DNA from: Escherichia phage vB_EcoM_PiR
Strand: one strand, 5' to 3'
Sequence record: OM313461
DNA: 52,936 bases
Under the pieces are notes generated by a model. That model worked only from the letters and a program-made list of their open reading frames with translations, had not been told where the DNA came from and ran no database searches. Shown here one piece after another: positions 3,019 through 44,935 of the stretch; the first letter of the stretch is position 1; each line of letters opens with the position of its first letter. Made by a program: the position numbers and the translations under genes.

Positions 3019-3047
3019 TTTACTTTCGGTTTACCTGGCTATATAAT
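3019..3047 (+). promoter_or_regulatory. sigma70-like promoter TTTACT-N17-TATAAT
   Basis: -35 TTTACT at 3019-3024, 17-bp spacer, -10 TATAAT at 3042-3047; leaves a ~143-nt GC-rich leader before 3191. Confidence 0.5.
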
Positions 3048-3190
3048 CCTTCATGTCAACCGCGCAACAGCCGGCCACGAGAGTCTGCAGGGCTCAGTGG
3101 ATTTCGGATGGCTGGCTGCGCGGTTCGACCCAAACCTGTTCGGAGCCCACTTGAGTGGATTGAGCCCCTCTCATATAGGATTGTAAAATT

Positions 3191-4885: not shown

Positions 4886-4907
4886 CCCACAAACGGGACT
4901 AACAAAA

Positions 4908-4933
4908 GGCGAGCTGACGAGCTCGCCTTTTTT
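4908..4933 (+). terminator. rho-independent terminator
   Basis: perfect 8-bp stem GGCGAGCT/AGCTCGCC with 4-nt loop followed by TTTTTT. Confidence 0.8.
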
Positions 4934-4934
4934 A

Positions 4935-4963
4935 TTTACACGTATAAAGTTCTGGTATATAAT
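4935..4963 (+). promoter_or_regulatory. sigma70-like promoter TTTACA-N17-TATAAT
   Basis: -35 TTTACA 4935-4940, 17-bp spacer, -10 TATAAT 4958-4963; GGAGG SD and ATG at 4990 downstream. Confidence 0.65.
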
Positions 4964-6806: not shown

Positions 6807-7429
6807 TGGCAACTGAAGTAGACCCGGAACTGCAAGCGCAGCTGGATAAGCTAACAACTGCTGTCCAGCTTATTCATGACTTCGGTATGTCAGACGACTC
6901 AAGCATCCCTAACCCGGAAGGCGGTGTCATACGCACACTCGAAGGCATTAACGCTGCAATCAATGAAGCTATACCAAATTTTGAAAATGCTAACGAAGCT
7001 GCTATACAGGCGCGTGCTGCTCGTGATGCGGCTATTGCAGCCAAAGAAGCTGCAGAAACCGCAGCTGAACAGGCCACAGTATCTTCTACGTCAGCAATCT
7101 ATGAGTACGGCAACGTTGCAAGTGCAGCTACTGTAACTATACCTGCTGCATCTAAAACAATTGTCAGTCTTACTCTTAACCAGCCAAACACCGTAATTAA
7201 TATCGGTGGTGTATCTGACCCGTCTACTGTTGCGCGTCAGATTACTATTGCTATTAAGCAAGGCACTGGTTCTAACAAGGTGACTGCCTGGGATCCCAGA
7301 ATAAAATGGGCAAACAACAGAAAGCCCGTTCTGTCATTCCTTGTGGGTTACACAGATGTTGTTACGTTGCTTACATTTGACTCAGGAGCAACTTGGATGG
7401 GTTTCTTTAACGGTGGATGGATTAAATAA
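6806..7429 (+). CDS. hypothetical virion protein
   Basis: ATG 6806 overlapping upstream stop (TAATG); Ala-rich coiled N-terminal region. Confidence 0.5.
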   Translation: MATEVDPELQAQLDKLTTAVQLIHDFGMSDDSSIPNPEGGVIRTLEGINAAINEAIPNFENANEAAIQARAARDAAIAAKEAAETAAEQATVSSTSAIYEYGNVASAATVTIPAASKTIVSLTLNQPNTVINIGGVSDPSTVARQITIAIKQGTGSNKVTAWDPRIKWANNRKPVLSFLVGYTDVVTLLTFDSGATWMGFFNGGWIK

Positions 7430-10386
7430 TGCACACGATGTTGCTTAAAGACGGATCAGACCATCGAGCTAATGTCGAAAGCCTTATCGAAGGTCACCAC
7501 CACTTTCTTGAGCGCAATACTGGTAGAACTGACGACGCTACGCGTCAGCACTATATCTTCAACCCAGAAGGAGTAGTGTCGAACAACCGCCATTTTATTG
7601 CGCACACTATGATGGAGTACCAACCTAACGGTGATGCTCCGTCTGAAAGTCAGTCGCTGCTGATACTCGGCGAAATTCACGCGTACCTTGCTACTAAGGA
7701 ACAGCGGTATCTGGACAAAGCAATTGAGTACTTCAATGCTTACGTCAAATACTATTACGAGGGTGACCCAATCCCTGATACTCCTCGTCGCTGGATCGCT
7801 AACTGGCTTTGTAATGGCAAAGAGCCTGTGCTAGCCAGCTTCCCGATCAACCCTGATTCACCAACACAGGGTGGATATAAAAATGTGCCAGTTAAATTTG
7901 TTAACGGCAAAGCACAAATCCCTCATGGTTCTCCTTTCTGGGGCGAGTACCTGGATGTTGCTACTTGGGCCCACAGGGGACACATGGCATGGCCTGCTAT
8001 TAATGGCGGGGTGCGTGTTATTAAAAATGAAGTTAACTGGGATGATATTTACAACAATTATCGCATCACTACCATGCCAGCTGACCCATGGAATCAGTTA
8101 GCCTGGATTGACTGGCCGAGGTACCTCGGTGAGCCAAGCTACACTGTGGACTGGTCTGCTGCTGAACCTCCTATACATCTCATCGAGTATATTGTTGCGT
8201 GGACCAATAACAAGATTGGTGTTCTACCTGGCAAAAACGATGAGCTATGGGGAGGCGAGATTCTTGAGACTGGACTGCCTGACTCTCGCAGGGGTGAGAT
8301 TCAGCTTCGTGACCATACTATCAATGGTGTGTACCTGCTTAACTATGCTGTTAAGCTTCCTGTTGAACACGGTGGTTATTTGCTCAAGCGAAATGAAGTA
8401 TGGCACAACAGACCTGTGAACGTTCCACTGTACGGCGAGCTTCAGCGCGGTAATGCTGCTGATGCTGAGTTGTGGTTCTGTGACTGCTGCTATATGCTGT
8501 GGCGAATTACTAACGAGCAAAAGTATTACAACGCTTGGCAAGCTGTCCTGTTTACACTGGAGGAGTATATTGACATCGATAAACAAGACCAGTTCTTCCG
8601 ACAAGACACTCACGCGTCGTCTCCGTTTACTGATGGCATCTCTTATGATTGGTCTTATCCTGAACTGGCACAAGCTATATATTCACGTGATGAAAATGGT
8701 TATATAGTTCTACGTCAGAACGAAAAAGCTCAATCATCTCTGGAGCAGCAGGCTGTATGGTTTAAGTGTAAGCCAACAGCTAAGATACGTACAGAAGTTG
8801 GTGGCAAAGATGATGCTGGTCAGAATATCAGTGTCAAGGTGGAAATGTACATGAACCGTGAAAAGGTTGACGTCGAGCAAAACATCTATCGTTTTGTCAC
8901 ACAGCTACCTGCTCTTGGCGCTTCGCCTGCTAACTACGACATTCCGTTAAGCGATTTTGTCGCAGGTACTAAGCCAGACGGTTCTGAGTATATCTTAGCT
9001 GATATTCGTTCATCCACTGATTATGGTAATGCCACTATTGCAGTGTCTTACCGTACTGACATACTCGACAACAGACGTGGCAACACTGTTCGTATGACGA
9101 TACCGGATAGTTCGTCAGGTGCCATTATAGGCTTTTGGCTACTGGAATCTTCCCAGGCACCTTTAAACTCGCTGACGTATACTTCTACAGGTCCGTTGTA
9201 CATCAAAGTAACTGACGCGCAAGGCTGGAGCTGGGTACGTGATTTACCTGCCGCATCAGGCTGGGTAACTCAGCAGATTCGTACATGGGAGTTCAGGCTG
9301 GCGTCATACCAGGAAAACCCAGGTACACCACCAGCTAGCCCACAATTCGGCGAGATTAAGCAGTTCTCGTTTGTACTGCCTGACGGCGTTAATACGTCGA
9401 CAAGTATTAGCTGGTACTGTGTGAATGATGTTCCGCCTCGCTATAACTGGCCAATTGGTTATACGATTAAGTATCGTCTTACTTTCTCGGCTGATAACCC
9501 GTACACAGCTAAGCTTGGCGACTGTACTGTGCTGGACTATGAGAATGATAACCTTGCTTACACGCCAGGTGTTATTCCGTTCTCCAACATTTATAACCCT
9601 GATTCTAAGCAGTTCGATGGTTGGCACGGTATACCTTACCCTGGCTATCAGTATCCGTTTGTCTTTACGCATGACGATACTGCAGCAGGTACAATCAGGC
9701 TGAACAACATGGTTAACTTTTTGTACGATTCTCAGCAATGGTACTATAAGAAGTTTGGTCAGCTAGGTCCTGGTGCATCTGCTTTTATCTGGAACCGTTG
9801 GGATAACTTTAAATACGGTGTACCTGATACGTTTACCATGTATCACTGGGGTAATGGTAGTGCATGGTCAGGTTACCAGCCTCGTGCTTATTTCTCCGCA
9901 GCACGTGGATGGTATGAGCTAGTAAACCGTGGTAAGCCGGTTCCGAGTAAGCTTATTGCTTACGTGGATAACTGGTCAAAATGGTTGCTTGACTTCATGG
10001 AAAGGTCAGGAGGTGTGTCACCTTCTAACTTCCCGCAAGAAGGTGTTGCTCTGCCAGTCCCTTCAGACTTCACAGGCCACATGTGTGGACTATGGCTTGC
10101 TGGTGCAGCTATGTCAGCCCTTTGTGGGTCAACAGTATCAGGACTTGATAAGCTGATGGATATGCTTGTCAATGAGCTAGAAGACCACTATGACATAACT
10201 GGTATTCCGGGACATGTAATGGATGGTGGTTGGTCGCCAGCGTTACGCCTTGAAACTGGTACCGGACCTGAAAGCAACGCCATGTACTATGGTTTTTACT
10301 CTGGCGAAATATTACGAGGGCTGGGGTTATACTTACTGTACAAAAACAAAGGGGCTAAAGCAGATATTTATGATTTAGGCCCGTAA
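7429..10386 (+). CDS. large virion-associated protein (985 aa), function unknown; possibly carbohydrate-active
   Basis: long uninterrupted ORF, Trp/Tyr-rich, located between head-completion genes and Ig-like proteins; no catalytic motif confidently recognised. Confidence 0.5.
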   Translation: MHTMLLKDGSDHRANVESLIEGHHHFLERNTGRTDDATRQHYIFNPEGVVSNNRHFIAHTMMEYQPNGDAPSESQSLLILGEIHAYLATKEQRYLDKAIEYFNAYVKYYYEGDPIPDTPRRWIANWLCNGKEPVLASFPINPDSPTQGGYKNVPVKFVNGKAQIPHGSPFWGEYLDVATWAHRGHMAWPAINGGVRVIKNEVNWDDIYNNYRITTMPADPWNQLAWIDWPRYLGEPSYTVDWSAAEPPIHLIEYIVAWTNNKIGVLPGKNDELWGGEILETGLPDSRRGEIQLRDHTINGVYLLNYAVKLPVEHGGYLLKRNEVWHNRPVNVPLYGELQRGNAADAELWFCDCCYMLWRITNEQKYYNAWQAVLFTLEEYIDIDKQDQFFRQDTHASSPFTDGISYDWSYPELAQAIYSRDENGYIVLRQNEKAQSSLEQQAVWFKCKPTAKIRTEVGGKDDAGQNISVKVEMYMNREKVDVEQNIYRFVTQLPALGASPANYDIPLSDFVAGTKPDGSEYILADIRSSTDYGNATIAVSYRTDILDNRRGNTVRMTIPDSSSGAIIGFWLLESSQAPLNSLTYTSTGPLYIKVTDAQGWSWVRDLPAASGWVTQQIRTWEFRLASYQENPGTPPASPQFGEIKQFSFVLPDGVNTSTSISWYCVNDVPPRYNWPIGYTIKYRLTFSADNPYTAKLGDCTVLDYENDNLAYTPGVIPFSNIYNPDSKQFDGWHGIPYPGYQYPFVFTHDDTAAGTIRLNNMVNFLYDSQQWYYKKFGQLGPGASAFIWNRWDNFKYGVPDTFTMYHWGNGSAWSGYQPRAYFSAARGWYELVNRGKPVPSKLIAYVDNWSKWLLDFMERSGGVSPSNFPQEGVALPVPSDFTGHMCGLWLAGAAMSALCGSTVSGLDKLMDMLVNELEDHYDITGIPGHVMDGGWSPALRLETGTGPESNAMYYGFYSGEILRGLGLYLLYKNKGAKADIYDLGP

Positions 10387-10392
10387 CCACTA

Positions 10393-10421
10393 TTTACTTA
10401 ACCGAGGCGCCAGCCTATAAT
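10393..10421 (+). promoter_or_regulatory. sigma70-like promoter TTTACT-N17-TATAAT with embedded inverted repeat
   Basis: -35 10393-10398, -10 10416-10421; 8-bp perfect inverted repeat GCGCCAGC (10407-10414) / GCTGGCGC (10424-10431) flanks the -10. Confidence 0.55.
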
Positions 10422-10453
10422 AAGCTGGCGCACCCAATAAGAGGATTCTCCAG

Positions 10454-11092
10454 ATGGCAAATCGTACTACAGCCAACCGTCATATTGAAGACGCAGACCT
10501 GCGTCAAGAGTCGGTTACTCAGTTCCCGTTAGCCAAGCCGACCAAGCTTGATGAGAACGGAAAATTCATTCCAACCCCAGTTACCGGTGTAACTGTTACC
10601 CCTAAAACTAAGTCAATTGCTGTTGGTGAGTTTACTACTCTGACAGCAGCAGTAGCCCCGGCAGACGCAGATGACGTCACCGTATTGTGGGAAAGCGATA
10701 CACCTGCTAATGCCACTGTTGATGGTTCAGGTCGTGTTCAGGGTATCAAAGTAGGTTCAGCAACTATTACTGCTAAATCCAAGCTTGACCCTGCCAAAAC
10801 CGATACCGTAGCAATTACGGTAACTGCTCCGCCTGTAGCCGTCACTGGTGTTACGTTAGCGCCTAAGTCGCCCAGCGTTGTAGTAGGCTCTACTGTACAG
10901 CTGACTGCAACTGTGCTGCCTGCTGGCGCTACTAACAAAGCTGTTACCTACGAGTCCAATGACACGGCTAAAGCTACTGTTAGCGCTACCGGTCTGGTGA
11001 CTGGTAAAGCAGCTGGCGTCGTCACCATCACTGTCAAAACAGCTGATGGCAGCTTCACTGACACCGCGTCAGTAACTGTTACTGCCGAGTAA
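10454..11092 (+). CDS. Ig-like (Big_2-type) domain protein
   Basis: tandem repeats of motif VTGVxxxPKxxS..GxTxQLTATVxPxxATNKxVTYES.D..xATV...G.VTG...G..TIT.KT.DG. Confidence 0.75.
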   Translation: MANRTTANRHIEDADLRQESVTQFPLAKPTKLDENGKFIPTPVTGVTVTPKTKSIAVGEFTTLTAAVAPADADDVTVLWESDTPANATVDGSGRVQGIKVGSATITAKSKLDPAKTDTVAITVTAPPVAVTGVTLAPKSPSVVVGSTVQLTATVLPAGATNKAVTYESNDTAKATVSATGLVTGKAAGVVTITVKTADGSFTDTASVTVTAE

Positions 11093-11103
11093 GGAGCTGA
11101 TTG

Positions 11104-13233
11104 ATGTCGCTTCCACTTGATGAGGTTGTCGACGTCCAGTTCAGTAAGAGCAACGGGGGTAAAGGTTTTACCCCCAATGTTCCGCTGGAAGGCATAATGC
11201 TTTACAACTACGAGTACTCAATCGTTGCGGATGATGACCCTGTTCAGCTAGCTGTGCTCTACATTCCAACCAACGCTACGGAGCGTGGTATGGTATGGGA
11301 ATCTAGCGACTCAGACGTTATCACCGTTGATGAGCTCGGATTTGCAAAGCCGCTGGCGGAAGGTGTTGCATACGTGACTGGTACGTCTGTTGATGGCGGT
11401 TATACTGTACGAGCAAAGTTCAATGTTGCTCGAGCACCTATCCTTGTTGAATCTGTTACAGTGTCTCCCACAAGCGTGACACTTGAAGAGGGTAAGACTC
11501 AACGTCTGACATACACCTATTTACCTGCTAATGCAGACAAACCTGATTTTTACTGGATTTCAGATGACGAGGCTGTTGCTGTCGTTAGTGACAGCGGGCT
11601 TGTCACTGCCATTCTAGACGGTGAAACAACTGTAAGCGTACAGTACGGTATTGACAGTACTATATCTGATAGCTGTATCGTAACTGTTATTCCACCTATT
11701 GTACACGTTACAGGAGTTGAGTTTCTTACTCAGTCACCTCTTAACATTAATATCGGAAGCACAACTGAGACGAGTATTCGTGTATCGCCAGAAGACGCCA
11801 CTGACAAAACAGTGACGTACGAAAGCAGTGCGACTGATGTAGTAACTGTAGATACTGACGGAAATGTTACGGGTGTTATAGCTGGCAATGCCACTATTAC
11901 TGTTAAGACGAATGATGGTGATAAGACTGACACTCTTGATATTATAGTCAAGGAGGCTGTCGTAAATGTTACCGGTGTAAGTATTGATGAAGGCGCTACA
12001 GCTTCTATGGAGGTTGGTGACACGCTTCAGCTACATGCCACTGTGACTCCTGAAAATGCTACTGACCCGTCTGTTGTATGGAGTGCTCCTGTATCAGAAG
12101 TTGCGTCTGTGACTGAAGCTGGTTTGGTAACCGCTAACGCTGCAGGTTTAATTGATGTTACTGTTATCACTAATGATGGGAACTTTACTGATAGAATCGA
12201 GGTTAAAGTTACAGACCCCAGAATCGCAGTTACGGATGTTGCATGGGCTCCTGACTCTCCGACTAAAGTAAGACATGGCCATCAGGTGCAAACTAAAATT
12301 GTTATAACACCTGAAAAAGCAACCAATAAAAAAGTCAGTTACAACAGCTCAAACCCAGACGCTGTTACTGTTGACACTGATGGAGTTATATACGGTCAAT
12401 CTCCTGGAACTTCAACTATTACAGTTACAACAGACGACGGTGGACTTACTGCTTCGTTTATAGCTACTTGCACAGAAGTGGCTGTTATTACACCTGACGG
12501 TCTTGGCGGTATTCCAATCGGTGGCACCCAGCAGTTCACTTATACTGTTAGCCCGTCTGATGCTGAGCTAACTGATATTCGTTACGAATCTGCTAACCCA
12601 GCTATTGCAACTGTTGATTCGTCTGGCGTTGTAACTGGTGTTGCTAGCGGCGGATGTAATATCTGGATTTACGCAACTAGTAATGGTGCGGACATTAGCT
12701 CAGCTACTTGGGCACAAATTTCTGAGAGGGTTCAGGTATACCCGCAGTATGCTGAATGGCTTGTGGGTAACAACAAACAGCTTGATGTTGAGATTTATCC
12801 ATCGGACTCTAAGAGCGTTACCGTTACTTATAGCTCGTCAGATGATTCTGTAATTAGCATAGATGCAAATGGCTTGATGACTGCTAAGTCTGAAGGTTCA
12901 GCAACTATTACTGCTAACGTTGTAATGAACGGTGTTGCTGCTTCTGGTACAACATCTCCTTACGTGTCTGAGCTTTCTGTTACTACTGATTCGCTGCCTG
13001 CACTTACTGTTGGCAACACGCAGCAGCTGGTTGTAACTGTTAGACCTGAATACGCTAAGACAGACCCAGGCTATAACATTCAGTATACAACTACAGACGA
13101 TACTGTCGCTACTGTAAGTAATACCGGTGTTATTACTGGCGTTGGTAACGGTGGATGCCGTATTGGTGCCACAGTAACTGTGAGAAATGCTACAGCGTCG
13201 GACAGCTCTTATCAGTCCGTCGATGCAGCATAA
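11104..13233 (+). CDS. multi-repeat Ig-like (Big_2-type) domain protein
   Basis: about 7 repeats of the same Ig-like motif; track start 11101 is TTG, ATG at 11104. Confidence 0.75.
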   Translation: MSLPLDEVVDVQFSKSNGGKGFTPNVPLEGIMLYNYEYSIVADDDPVQLAVLYIPTNATERGMVWESSDSDVITVDELGFAKPLAEGVAYVTGTSVDGGYTVRAKFNVARAPILVESVTVSPTSVTLEEGKTQRLTYTYLPANADKPDFYWISDDEAVAVVSDSGLVTAILDGETTVSVQYGIDSTISDSCIVTVIPPIVHVTGVEFLTQSPLNINIGSTTETSIRVSPEDATDKTVTYESSATDVVTVDTDGNVTGVIAGNATITVKTNDGDKTDTLDIIVKEAVVNVTGVSIDEGATASMEVGDTLQLHATVTPENATDPSVVWSAPVSEVASVTEAGLVTANAAGLIDVTVITNDGNFTDRIEVKVTDPRIAVTDVAWAPDSPTKVRHGHQVQTKIVITPEKATNKKVSYNSSNPDAVTVDTDGVIYGQSPGTSTITVTTDDGGLTASFIATCTEVAVITPDGLGGIPIGGTQQFTYTVSPSDAELTDIRYESANPAIATVDSSGVVTGVASGGCNIWIYATSNGADISSATWAQISERVQVYPQYAEWLVGNNKQLDVEIYPSDSKSVTVTYSSSDDSVISIDANGLMTAKSEGSATITANVVMNGVAASGTTSPYVSELSVTTDSLPALTVGNTQQLVVTVRPEYAKTDPGYNIQYTTTDDTVATVSNTGVITGVGNGGCRIGATVTVRNATASDSSYQSVDAA

Positions 13234-13258
13234 AAATTAATTAACTTTGCCTCGGCCA

Positions 13259-13287
13259 TTTACTTGGTTAAACTTACTGAGTATAAT
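13259..13287 (+). promoter_or_regulatory. sigma70-like promoter TTTACT-N17-TATAAT
   Basis: -35 13259-13264, -10 13282-13287; inverted repeat CGGCCATT (13253-13260) / AATGGCCG (13285-13292) overlaps both hexamers; AAGAGG SD before ATG 13320. Confidence 0.6.
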
Positions 13288-13319
13288 GGCCGGAAAGTCC
13301 ACCCAAGAGGTAAACAAAA

Positions 13320-14459
13320 ATGCCGTTGAATGTAAACCAGATTGTAAACGTTCAACTGAACAACACTCCAACTGGTATCAGCAAAGGTGACTTCGGTAAG
13401 CTGGCTCTTTTAACTCAGGACCCTGGCACTGCTTTTCCTGACAGCGACAACGGACACTATGTTGAAATCGGCAGCTACTCTGAAGCCGAGTCTTATTGGG
13501 GTGCTGGTTCAGTTGTGCTTGGCGCGTTGAAGATTTTCTTTGCACAATCTCCGCGTCCTCGTTCAGTAGTTATCGCCTCATGGAACAACACCTCTACTCT
13601 GGATGCGGCTATTAAAGCATTCAACGATGTGTACCCTGACTGGTATGTTCTGCGTCCGCTTCCACCTACTGGTGAGCTGTCTGACGATGACATCAGTTTG
13701 CTGGCGTCAACTGTTGCTGCTTACGATAAAAAACGTTGCAGCTATACAACCACTAAAGCAACTCATATTGAAAACAGCGACTCCAACCCGATTAAAGTTC
13801 TGGCTGGTAAAGGCTACAACAATATGTGGCTTCAGTATGATAAGAACAACCAACACTATGCAGACATTTCTGCTATGGCGCGTGCTCTGTCCGTTAACTT
13901 CTCTGGTAACCGCACCACGATTACCATGAAGTTCAAACAAGAGCCTGGCATTACACCGAACAACACTTTAACGCTTACTGAAGCTAACAAGTGTAAAGCG
14001 CTGGGTATTAACTGGTACACCTACTACAGCACCTTTGCTATGCTTGCTGAGGGTACTGTTCTCGGTACGTCCAAACCGCCTCGCTTCTGGGATGAAGTAC
14101 ACGGCCTAGACTGGTTCTGTAATGCAGTTCAGACTTACGTCTTCAACTCAATCGCTACGTCACCCACGAAGGTGCCGCAGACGAACAAAGGTCACGAGCG
14201 CCTTACCGGTGCTGCAGCTGTTGCTTGTCAGCAGGCTGTCGACAACGGCTTGGTTGCACCTGGTATCTGGTACGGTGATGAGTTTGGTACACTGTCTTAT
14301 GGTGACCGACTCGAGACAGGTTTCTACATCTACATCCCTGACGTAGATGACCAGCCTCTGGATGAGCGTGAAGCTCGTCAGGCCGTTGTAATGCAAATCG
14401 CGATTAAGCTGGCAGGTGCAATCCATTCCAGCGACATCCTGATTAACTTCACTCGCTAA
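13320..14459 (+). CDS. tail sheath protein (probable)
   Basis: 379-aa ORF followed by 143-aa tube-sized ORF, chaperone with frameshift and tape measure, the order seen in P2/Mu-type contractile tails. Confidence 0.5.
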   Translation: MPLNVNQIVNVQLNNTPTGISKGDFGKLALLTQDPGTAFPDSDNGHYVEIGSYSEAESYWGAGSVVLGALKIFFAQSPRPRSVVIASWNNTSTLDAAIKAFNDVYPDWYVLRPLPPTGELSDDDISLLASTVAAYDKKRCSYTTTKATHIENSDSNPIKVLAGKGYNNMWLQYDKNNQHYADISAMARALSVNFSGNRTTITMKFKQEPGITPNNTLTLTEANKCKALGINWYTYYSTFAMLAEGTVLGTSKPPRFWDEVHGLDWFCNAVQTYVFNSIATSPTKVPQTNKGHERLTGAAAVACQQAVDNGLVAPGIWYGDEFGTLSYGDRLETGFYIYIPDVDDQPLDEREARQAVVMQIAIKLAGAIHSSDILINFTR

Positions 14460-14470
14460 GGAGCAGATCA

Positions 14471-14902
14471 ATGATCATCGATTCTTCTGAATGCGTGTTG
14501 AGCCTGAATGGTGTTCAGCTGTCCGACTGGGCAGACGGTGCCGATGTCATTGACGTGCAATGGGTGGACCCAGCTTCCACCTATCTTGCAGGTGCTGATG
14601 GCGGTGGTATCCAGATTATGAACCCGTCCAAAGCCATTAAGCTGACTATCAAAGTTAAGCAAAGTGGTCCGGACGCCAAATGGCTTAACGACCAGTACAA
14701 CCTGCAGCGTAACAACATTCGTGGATTCGTCCCGTTTGTGCTGCAAGCCAAAGACCTGCTAAACCAGGATTTGGCATGGGGTAAAAAAGGTTACTTTACC
14801 GATGGTTCCCCGTGGACTCGTGGTAACGGCCATAACCCGACTACCTTCTCTATTGTGTTCCACCAAGGTGGTATGCAGTTGACTGAAGGCTTTGACCAGT
14901 AA
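14471..14902 (+). CDS. tail tube protein (probable)
   Basis: 143-aa ORF between sheath candidate and chaperone. Confidence 0.5.
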   Translation: MIIDSSECVLSLNGVQLSDWADGADVIDVQWVDPASTYLAGADGGGIQIMNPSKAIKLTIKVKQSGPDAKWLNDQYNLQRNNIRGFVPFVLQAKDLLNQDLAWGKKGYFTDGSPWTRGNGHNPTTFSIVFHQGGMQLTEGFDQ

Positions 14903-18458: not shown

Positions 18459-19359
18459 GGTCAGCAACGGTAAAGATGAAGGCATAATCATCTCAAATCT
18501 TCGTGTTACCTTTGACATTCAAAAGGGTAACACGAAGCATCCAAATAAAGCGACAATCACAGTGTTCAACTTGACTGAATCCAACCGTTATAAGTTGGCG
18601 GCAGGTACCTGGGATTACGTCCGTCTCTCTGTGGGTTACGGTCTTGACAACATAGTTTATCGTTTGATATTCGAAGGCGATATTACTCGTGCTAACGACC
18701 AACGAAACGGCCTTGACATTCAGACTGTTCTCGAATGTGGCGATGCCCGTAAATCTTACAACGATGGCTTTGTTAATACGACGCTGGCTGCTGGTTCTAC
18801 GTATGACAGTGTTGTTGACGTTTGCCTGGCTAGCATGCCAAACGTTGAAGAAGGGTACGTCTGCCTTGACAGCAACAAACCAGCTTTCCTGAGAGCACGT
18901 ACTCTGTTCGGACAAACGCACAGTGTACTGGACCAGGTTGCTGCTGCCAACAAGGCTACCTGGTCTATACAAGACAATAAGCTCAATATCATTCCTAACG
19001 ACTCTGTTACTGACTACGACGTTGTTGTGCTGTCAGAATCGTCTGGTATGATTGGTGCTCCTCGCGGCACAGACAAAGGTCTTGAGGTTACTTGCAACCT
19101 GAATCCTAGCCTGGCCATCGGTGGTCTTGTACAAGTAAATTCTATGTTTACACAGTACAACGGACAGTATAAAATCGACACTATAAGATTTCGGGGTGAC
19201 AATAAACCGAAAGGACCGTGGCGTGCTGACTTAACGGTTCTTGGCGGACAGTTCGCGAAGAAAGTTCGTCGACTCAAGAAGCCACGCAAACTGTCGAAGA
19301 TTGAGTACGACTACGTTACCGAACCCGGTGTTGACCATACAGTAGGCGGAGGTAGCTGA
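18400..19359 (+). CDS. baseplate hub / tail protein (probable)
   Basis: start re-assigned to ATG 18400 with GGGAGGA SD; position before spike and gp25-like genes. Confidence 0.45.
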   Translation: MSTSSTKQPTRQFGRALKLEVSNGKDEGIIISNLRVTFDIQKGNTKHPNKATITVFNLTESNRYKLAAGTWDYVRLSVGYGLDNIVYRLIFEGDITRANDQRNGLDIQTVLECGDARKSYNDGFVNTTLAAGSTYDSVVDVCLASMPNVEEGYVCLDSNKPAFLRARTLFGQTHSVLDQVAAANKATWSIQDNKLNIIPNDSVTDYDVVVLSESSGMIGAPRGTDKGLEVTCNLNPSLAIGGLVQVNSMFTQYNGQYKIDTIRFRGDNKPKGPWRADLTVLGGQFAKKVRRLKKPRKLSKIEYDYVTEPGVDHTVGGGS

Positions 19360-36585: not shown

Positions 36586-36615
36586 ATTATACGCCACTTT
36601 TTATCATGGCGTAAA
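36586..36615 (-). promoter_or_regulatory. sigma70-like promoter TTTACG-N18-TATAAT (minus strand)
   Basis: reverse complement of 36610-36615 is TTTACG and of 36586-36591 is TATAAT. Confidence 0.5.
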
Positions 36616-41488: not shown

Positions 41489-41517
41489 ATTATGTATATA
41501 AAGGAGGGGAAAGTAAA
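41489..41517 (-). promoter_or_regulatory. sigma70-like promoter TTTACT-N17-CATAAT (minus strand)
   Basis: reverse complement of 41512-41517 is TTTACT and of 41489-41494 is CATAAT; divergent from plus promoter at 41551. Confidence 0.5.
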
Positions 41518-41550
41518 TAGATATAAATGTATAAAATACATAAAAGTCTA

Positions 41551-41580
41551 TTTACTCTGGTTTAATAACGTGTATATAAT
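41551..41580 (+). promoter_or_regulatory. sigma70-like promoter TTTACT-N18-TATAAT
   Basis: -35 41551-41556, -10 41575-41580; AAGAGGAGAGA SD before ATG 41611. Confidence 0.55.
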
Positions 41581-44452: not shown

Positions 44453-44463
44453 GTAAGTAAATC

Positions 44464-44505
44464 AAGGGCTTGGGTAATTGTAAAAATCCTAAGCCCTTAT
44501 TTTTT
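44464..44505 (+). terminator. rho-independent terminator
   Basis: 11-bp stem AAGGGCTTGGG/CCTAAGCCCTT (one G-U), 13-nt loop, then ATTTTTT. Confidence 0.65.
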
Positions 44506-44619
44506 AAGCTTATTTTACAAACTGATTAATATTTAAACTATAATTAAATATATGGGCTCTAAGAGTATGATTTTATTACTCTTTTACAAATCATAATATA
44601 TGAGCTCCTTATAAAAGAT

Positions 44620-44835
44620 TAAGGGGGTAAAAAAGGGGGATACAAGAACCGGATAAAGGGGGTATATATTTATTTATTATTATTATTATTATTATATATT
44701 ATTAATTATATTAGAAGTAATAAAAACAGCTACTTAGAGGCGTCTATATGTATGATCCGGTTTATCTCTTTATTAATATCAGAACCGGATGAAAAAAATT
44801 TACGCTGGTGAAAAAAATAAAAAAGCCGGATTGAT
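44620..44835. repeat. AT-rich iteron cluster (putative replication origin)
   Basis: three AAGGGGG(T/A) copies (44620-44665), ACCGGAT-type motif four times in both orientations (44647, 44753, 44782, 44825), (ATT)n microsatellite 44671-44695. Confidence 0.5.
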
Positions 44836-44852
44836 AAATAAATCTGTAGACG

Positions 44853-44881
44853 TTTACACTGTAAAAAAGATGTGCTACAAT
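44853..44881 (+). promoter_or_regulatory. sigma70-like promoter TTTACA-N17-TACAAT with extended -10 TG
   Basis: -35 44853-44858, TGCTACAAT at 44873-44881. Confidence 0.6.
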
Positions 44882-44935
44882 ATTTATCAATGTTGCTGAT
44901 TACCAAAACTTTGAATTGTATACGAGGCTGAATAA

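Follow-up and report, generated by a model that had tools for sequence, protein, structure and literature searches.

Two putative promoters in the structural operon of Escherichia phage vB_EcoM_PiR (sequence record OM313461; 52,936 nucleotides (nt), analysed over its full length and referred to as the window) are overlapped by inverted repeats, which raises the question of what these repeats are for. The window spans all or nearly all of a Rosemountvirus genome; such BP63-like myoviruses have Salmonella and E. coli as hosts. One promoter precedes a gene for an Ig-domain structural protein (site 1), the other the sheath and tube genes (site 2). The original prediction, which was followed up here, preferred to see the repeats as operator sites for a repressor or activator and named hairpins in read-through transcripts as the other option. 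In our reading, to which we assign a probability of about 0.5, both sites are internal sigma-70 promoters overlaid with sense-strand intercistronic RNA hairpins, which would act on late mRNA reading through from upstream.

Both promoters (TTTACT-17-TATAAT at 10393-10421 and 13259-13287), both perfect 8-bp inverted repeats (10407-10414/10424-10431 and 13253-13260/13285-13292) and the nature of the downstream genes were found as originally described. The hexamers match the consensus in 10 of 12 positions at each site, and the spacing lies within the 16-18 bp of sigma-70 promoters. TTTACT-N16-18-TATAAT occurs five times in the window with 0.01 copies expected, and every copy is intergenic and faces the next gene. 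TTTAC(T/A)-17-TATAAT is present at both places in all 19 genomes and contigs compared (see below). The site-1 promoter is already annotated in the BP63 RefSeq record, whereas the site-2 promoter is without annotation there. By their motifs, both sites are well supported as putative internal promoters for the host sigma-70 RNA polymerase. The motifs are of the same near-consensus host type as those of the promoters on the early-gene strand; the label “late” derives from the function of the downstream genes only. An antisense or bidirectional promoter at site 1 was considered and rejected, since inspection of the minus strand showed a TATTAT without an acceptable -35. With a slightly relaxed pattern, 12 promoter-like sites were obtained on the late and early strands, 11 of which lie in gaps or at gene ends and point toward the next gene. 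The exception is TTTACA-17-TAAAAT at 19147-19175 (plus strand) within the baseplate-hub gene; it is kept in all five genomes compared, and coding constraint may explain this conservation. For the related phage S144, promoters were predicted only and no phage RNA polymerase is encoded (PMC7432712). The papers on S144, AEV23 and vB_SenM-1 likewise give promoters by prediction only and do not mention inverted repeats.

Pairing at site 2 extends well beyond the perfect arms. T13284, the third base of the -10, is the single bulge in a helix that covers the whole promoter. Further inward, the RNA pairs the TAC of the -35 with GTA, formed by G-13 and the initial TA of the -10, and one end of the spacer with the other; the -35 is thereby paired with the -10. 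The minimum free energy as RNA is -16.1 kcal/mol for site 1 and -21.4 kcal/mol for site 2. These are the most structured of the 12 promoter-like sites; the others range from -0.9 to -13.3 kcal/mol and are mostly unstructured. Compared with dinucleotide shuffles, z-scores of -2.7 (site 1) and -4.5 (site 2) were obtained as RNA and of -4.7 and -4.4 as DNA, with a range of -3.7 to -4.7 over both strands. Perfect inverted repeats of at least 8 bp with a loop of 3-30 nt occur 45 times in the window versus 19.2 ± 4.0 times in first-order Markov simulations, i.e. they are about 2.3-fold over-represented genome-wide (45 vs 19). A lone 8-bp repeat is not rare, and the case from a single genome is only moderate. 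Such repeats would cover about 1% of all positions, and the probability that at least 2 of 12 promoters are straddled is estimated at about 0.01. It is the comparison among relatives, not rarity in a single genome, that makes both repeats count as real.

For this comparison, both sites were collected from 19 genomes and contigs. The set includes the Rosemountvirus members BP63, yarpen, JEP7, SE13, SenM-1, birk, swi3 and UPF_BP2, the Loughboroughvirus members ZCSE2, SE4, S1, AEV23 and ES2-BCU-3, and, from other lineages, Erwinia phage SOI901, vB_SE1_KM, KE26 and the metagenome contigs L006 and L045. A hairpin is found at both places in 19 of 19 (at least four lineages), with the surrounding intergenic bases strongly diverged. 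At site 1 (alignment A3), 93.8% of the cells are paired over eight distinct variants, compared with 19-45% when the partner column is slid. Its covariation score was reached by none of 500 shuffles. Pair 2 occurs as CG, AU or UA, pair 6 as AU or UA and pair 8 as CG or UG. The stems are GCGCCAGC/GCTGGCGC in the window and in ZCSE2, GTGCCTGC/GCAGGCAC in L006, TGCCAGC/GCTGGCA in KM and AGCCAGT/GCTGGCT in SOI901 and L045. In KM, SOI901 and L006 the stem lies 1 nt nearer to the TATAAT than in the window, with the 9-nt loop unchanged, which suggests that the hairpin is constrained in its own right. An alignment anchored on the TATAAT puts the arms 1 nt out of register and RNAalifold then predicts nothing; site 1 was therefore re-aligned on the hairpin.

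At site 2 (alignment A1), 92.6% of the cells are paired over 18 pairs in nine variants, compared with 25-42% after sliding. The pair 13253/13292 is C-G, U.G or U-A in three variants each. The spacer pairs vary as well and stay paired (U-A, A-U, U.G, C-G, G.U and G-C), and the Loughboroughvirus spacer is wholly different (ACACAG...CTGTGT) with perfect pairing. When RNAalifold was applied to the whole site-2 intergenic region, the promoter-spanning helix was the sole consensus structure. Two to three pairs have changed on both sides, the kind of compensatory change expected of a structured RNA. Pattern scans of IMG/VR returned only five relatives already in the set for site 2 and mostly chance matches for site 1, and a scan of a genome collection gave four matches in unrelated metagenome-assembled genomes, about the chance expectation. 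One further relative, L045, came from a search of metagenomes with the sheath protein. A comparable element is absent from the distant sheath homologues (33-47% identity, high G+C).

The deviations from Watson-Crick pairing in the site-2 helix are not symmetric. On the sense strand, there are 22 G.U cells in five columns versus one A.C cell. If duplex symmetry were the only constraint, transitions from Watson-Crick pairs should give both equally. The sense RNA of site 2 is more stable than the antisense RNA in nine of nine variants (e.g., -21.4 vs -15.9 and -21.6 vs -13.5). A third hairpin of this kind was identified at the promoter of the SSB gene on the minus strand, where the -35 side pairs with the -10 side. 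In SOI901 this hairpin reads TACATCA/TGGTGTA, with A-U in place of a G-C and a U.G wobble in addition; in ZCSE2 there is a G.U. Here, too, the sense RNA folds more stably than its antisense counterpart, in four of four genomes.

The features discussed here are listed in the table. Both sites belong to the plus-strand structural operon, in intergenic gaps of 67 nt (site 1) and 86 nt (site 2).

Table. Promoters, hairpins and neighbouring genes in the window
Feature	Position	Strand	Description
Site-1 promoter	10393-10421	+	-35 TTTACT 10393-10398, 17-nt spacer, -10 TATAAT 10416-10421; predicted start about 10428
Site-1 hairpin/palindrome	10407-10431	+	arms GCGCCAGC (10407-10414) and GCTGGCGC (10424-10431); 9-nt loop CTATAATAA holds the -10
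Site-2 promoter	13259-13287	+	-35 TTTACT 13259-13264, 17-nt spacer, -10 TATAAT 13282-13287; predicted start about 13294
Site-2 perfect arms	13253-13260, 13285-13292	+	CGGCCATT and AATGGCCG; share 2 nt with the -35 and 3 nt with the -10
Site-2 extended hairpin	13252-13293	+	17 pairs, 13252-13268 with 13276-13283 and 13285-13293; 7-nt loop 13269-13275
SSB promoter	36586-36615	-	TTTACG-18-TATAAT upstream of the SSB gene
SSB hairpin		-	-35 side TACGCCAT (36613-36606), -10 side GTGGCGTA (36597-36590)
Tail protein gene	7429-10386	+	upstream of site 1
Ig-domain structural protein gene	10454-11092	+	downstream of site 1
710-aa multi-Ig “major tail protein” gene	11101-13233	+	upstream of site 2
Sheath gene	13320-14459	+	downstream of site 2
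Tube or tube-like protein gene	14471-14902	+	after the sheath gene

Over 9800-14000, vB_EcoM_IntR is 98.8% identical to the window. JEP7 (MT764207) has the same length (52936 bp) and gene coordinates as the window and is only about 95-96% identical over this region.

In the reading of sense-strand hairpins on internal promoters, the promoters would boost abundant virion proteins, i.e. the Ig-domain protein at site 1 and sheath plus tube at site 2, while transcripts from upstream late promoters (e.g. 4935, and for site 2 also 10393) would read through the short gaps. A scan of the plus strand predicted no terminator between promoter 4935 and site 1, nor from site 1 to site 2. As the scan placed no intrinsic terminator between the upstream promoters and the sites, apart from the one at 4904-4931, read-through is expected. 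The read-through RNA would carry a stem-loop that starts 19-21 nt past the upstream stop codon and thus clear of the terminating ribosome. The site-2 hairpin would end at the predicted +1, and the site-1 hairpin would extend 3-4 nt past it, with the predicted +1 located within the 3' arm. Transcripts initiated at the internal promoter would be without the hairpin. The stems appear to use positions which a sigma-70 promoter leaves free (spacer, discriminator and the sequence preceding the -35), because gaps of 67 and 86 nt offer no space elsewhere; the site-2 stem would also exploit the built-in complementarity of ATTTAC with GTA(T)AAT.

We infer the read-through, and with it an effect of the hairpin on the RNA, which may be that of a stabiliser, a processing site or a pause. 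The most likely role would be that of an intercistronic stabiliser or processing element, which might serve the upstream message as a barrier to 3' exonucleases and/or the downstream message as a 5' cap-like hairpin or as a landmark for processing by RNase III/E. It would also mask the AU-rich promoter sequence inside the mRNA. The Shine-Dalgarno sequence is unpaired in the site-2 consensus structure. Its sequestration was considered, since in a single-sequence fold the GAGG of the sheath gene is paired with a CCUC that precedes the site-2 hairpin; this helix is not conserved according to RNAalifold and the idea was rejected. Rfam gave no match at the gathering threshold for the whole window and none at E up to 10 for 10300-13400. 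More tentatively, the hairpins could be parts of a dual-coded module in which a promoter sits in a hairpin that ends, on its 3' side, at the promoter's own +1 or a few nt away from it, so that read-through and internally initiated mRNAs might obtain equivalent leaders or stability through processing or protection. Such a module might be used at highly expressed genes (Ig-like, sheath/tube and SSB) and be conserved across several genera of enterobacterial myoviruses; we consider this possible at best.

Several points weigh against hairpins that act on read-through RNA. No transcriptome for this phage group was found in the literature. Genome-wide, both folding energies lie only near the 1% tail of 50-nt windows (1% quantile -18.6; site 1 -18.4, site 2 -21.4). 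Site 1 shows no consistent strand bias, and its antisense strand has the lower folding energy in the lineage of the window (-23.0 vs -16.8). At site 2, the T-rich stretch after the -35 and the G-rich stretch before the -10 could inflate the G.U counts. There are only eight to nine distinct variants, these are phylogenetically related, and the shuffle statistics are not probabilities. In addition, the symmetric changes in both arms of site 1 would fit a co-evolving dimeric DNA-binding protein, and the cores GCCAG/CTGGC and GGCCA/TGGCC are invariant or nearly so, hinting at a sequence-specific constraint, although the invariant cores may simply reflect promoter needs in the discriminator region.

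The last two points belong to the operator reading, in which the timing of the Ig-like and sheath promoters would be set by a dimeric repressor or activator, from the phage or the host, bound to each palindrome. At both sites there are perfect dyads over core promoter elements, and as most early proteins are of unknown function, a regulator could be hidden among them. However, the arms differ in sequence and spacing (GCGCCAGC-9-GCTGGCGC vs CGGCCATT-24-AATGGCCG), so that a common half-site at a fixed distance is lacking, and each dyad occurs once in the genome. The site-1 stem also shifts by 1 nt relative to the TATAAT and changes its sequence in relatives, e.g. to GTGCCTGC/GCAGGCAC, and the site-2 helix is bulged with mismatches biased to G.T on one strand, which would be meaningless for the recognition of a duplex. 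A shared GCCA...TGGC core, present in all three hairpins of the window, was tried as a common operator and rejected, as it is spaced by 13, 28 and 10 nt; the tetramer is moreover lost in site 1 of L006 (GTGCCTGC/GCAGGCAC) and in the SSB site of SOI901. Pfam and PHROGs searches of 30 uncharacterised proteins found no helix-turn-helix, Arc/MetJ or other DNA-binding regulator, a weak negative as most of these proteins are without assigned function; the only regulator-like match was the known DksA/TraR zinc finger, which acts on RNA polymerase and not on DNA. With dyads that are unlike each other and unique, and with no regulator detected, we regard the operator interpretation favoured by the original prediction as unlikely. 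Its alternative, hairpins in read-through transcripts, fits the pairing, the covariation and the strand bias of site 2 better.

The same evidence for a hairpin in the sense RNA would serve a leaky terminator or pause site, where the nascent hairpin slows or partly releases polymerases coming from upstream and thereby shields the internal promoter from occlusion and determines how upstream and downstream genes are balanced. Hairpin-plus-promoter junctions recur in this operon: a canonical terminator at 4904-4931 directly precedes the internal promoter at 4935, and in SOI901 and KM a GGGGCUUCGGCCCC-U run is present after the Ig-like gene. The two hairpins themselves, however, are not followed by a U-tract (ACCCAAUAAG, GAAAGUCCAC). 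Intrinsic termination by E. coli polymerase is weak without a U-tract. A canonical intrinsic terminator was rejected for either site, as the U-tract is absent and the terminator scan calls neither, and for the leaky variant we see a small chance. If the structures formed in the DNA, extrusion of cruciforms or hairpins could make the promoters sensitive to supercoiling, with the non-template -10 of site 1 single-stranded in the loop and the -35 and -10 of site 2 sequestered. Both strands do fold as DNA (z-scores of -3.7 to -4.7), and the -10 of site 1 does lie in the loop, but extrusion would be disfavoured where a stem has only 8 bp and a 9-nt loop, and likewise where it contains a bulge and G.T pairs, whose counterparts on the opposite strand are A.C. 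The predicted effects are opposite at the two sites, and no N4-type phage RNA polymerase is encoded (PMC7432712). We consider this very improbable. Finally, the repeats could be without function, as by-products of promoter composition and shared ancestry. About 19 such repeats per genome are expected by chance, four to seven of the site-2 pairs stem from the promoter consensus itself (TTTAC vs GTA-AAT), and the relatives are not independent samples. Against this, the pairing survives double substitutions where the flanking intergenic sequence is largely randomised, the hairpin shifts relative to the -10 and is yet kept, and the pattern is seen at three separate promoters but is absent from most others, which makes an absence of function highly doubtful.

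Further observations were made in the surroundings of the two sites and elsewhere in the genome. In SOI901 (L024, about 3095-3135, followed by a T run) and KM (L025, about 2757-2790), a GGGGCTTCGGCCCC hairpin lies between the Ig-like gene and the next gene, and the Ig-like gene may form its own promoter-to-terminator unit in these lineages. In the window, only a 9-nt gap without the GGGGCTTCGGCCCC hairpin follows the Ig-like gene. The annotated sheath start in KM (L025, 4720) and KE26 (L056, 3720) is the ATG in GGAATGTCC, directly after the hairpin. It is probably placed 18 nt too early, as the conserved AAGAGG Shine-Dalgarno sequence and the ATG of all other relatives lie downstream. Downstream of the major capsid gene, the terminator at 4904-4931 (plus strand; 12-bp stem, T-run) is followed after 3 nt by the -35 of the promoter TTTACA-17-TATAAT (junction 4904-4963).

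The gap between the portal and scaffold genes (3048-3190, plus strand), downstream of a promoter at 3019-3047, encodes a leader of about 130 nt which is very stable and almost invariant. Over 177 nt its minimum free energy amounts to -61 kcal/mol, and BP63, SOI901 and KM give -62 to -65.5 kcal/mol. Besides a long helix (CAACCGCGCA...TGCGCGGTT, enclosing GCCGGCC/GGCTGGC and GAGTCTGC.../...GTGGATT), it has a second hairpin; the repetition of AGTGGATT and the complementarity of GGGCTCA and TGAGCCC suggest an alternative pairing. Rfam gives no match for this leader at E up to 10. Its conservation greatly exceeds that of other intergenic DNA, and its covariation is unscorable because the leader hardly varies. 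At 41512-41556, a 10-bp perfect inverted repeat (AGTAAATAGA ... TCTATTTACT) encloses a 25-nt loop that contains the palindrome ATGTAT-AAA-ATACAT. The -35 of a promoter at 41551 lies within the 3' arm of this repeat, in the divergent control region that separates the early genes on the minus strand from the primase operon. The non-coding, AT-rich gap of 480 nt between the primase and RusA genes (44453-44935) resembles a replication origin, with four inverted repeats of at least 8 bp, an (ATT)n stretch and recurrent GGGGG boxes; a promoter-like site (TTTACA...TACAAT) is located at 44853.

If hairpins that act on read-through mRNA are indeed superimposed on the promoters of sites 1 and 2, a compact lytic phage would fit the control of initiation and of mRNA stability or processing into 25-42 bp, with the sequence constraints of promoter and hairpin solved together. 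This would also caution against reading palindromes at promoters as operators by default. Furthermore, the elements could be used as small natural parts (internal promoter plus RNA insulator) in the engineering of phages and synthetic operons. BP63-like phages are widely isolated as candidates for the biocontrol of Salmonella and E. coli.

Intercistronic hairpins that stabilise or process polycistronic mRNA are established for the RNase III sites of T7, the intercistronic hairpins of phiX174, REP elements and the puf operon. The elements described here resemble them as conserved stem-loops without a U-tract between co-directional genes of an operon, situated about 20 nt past a stop codon and upstream of a free Shine-Dalgarno sequence. 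They differ in being superimposed base for base on a functional-looking sigma-70 promoter; site 1 (8-11 bp) is also too short for a classical RNase III substrate. With palindromic operators, like LexA boxes or the operators of lambda and P22, they share a dyad centred on or flanking the -10 and -35. Unlike in those systems, there is no shared half-site, fixed spacing, regulon or detected regulator, and site 2 is bulged with strand-biased wobbles. Terminator-promoter junctions in phage operons, like that at 4904-4963 in the window, likewise combine a strong hairpin with an internal promoter before highly expressed structural genes. In that junction, however, the hairpin has a U-tract and precedes the -35, whereas sites 1 and 2 share bases with the promoter and have no U-tract. 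The promoters of the N4 virion RNA polymerase, with stems of 5-7 bp and 3-nt loops, are recognised by a dedicated phage polymerase. They, too, place a promoter within a short inverted repeat; the sites described here differ by their full sigma-70 -35 and -10 and the absence of a phage polymerase. Promoters and intercistronic hairpins are each ordinary, but their superposition base for base, conserved with covariation at three promoters over several genera, represents an undescribed variant.

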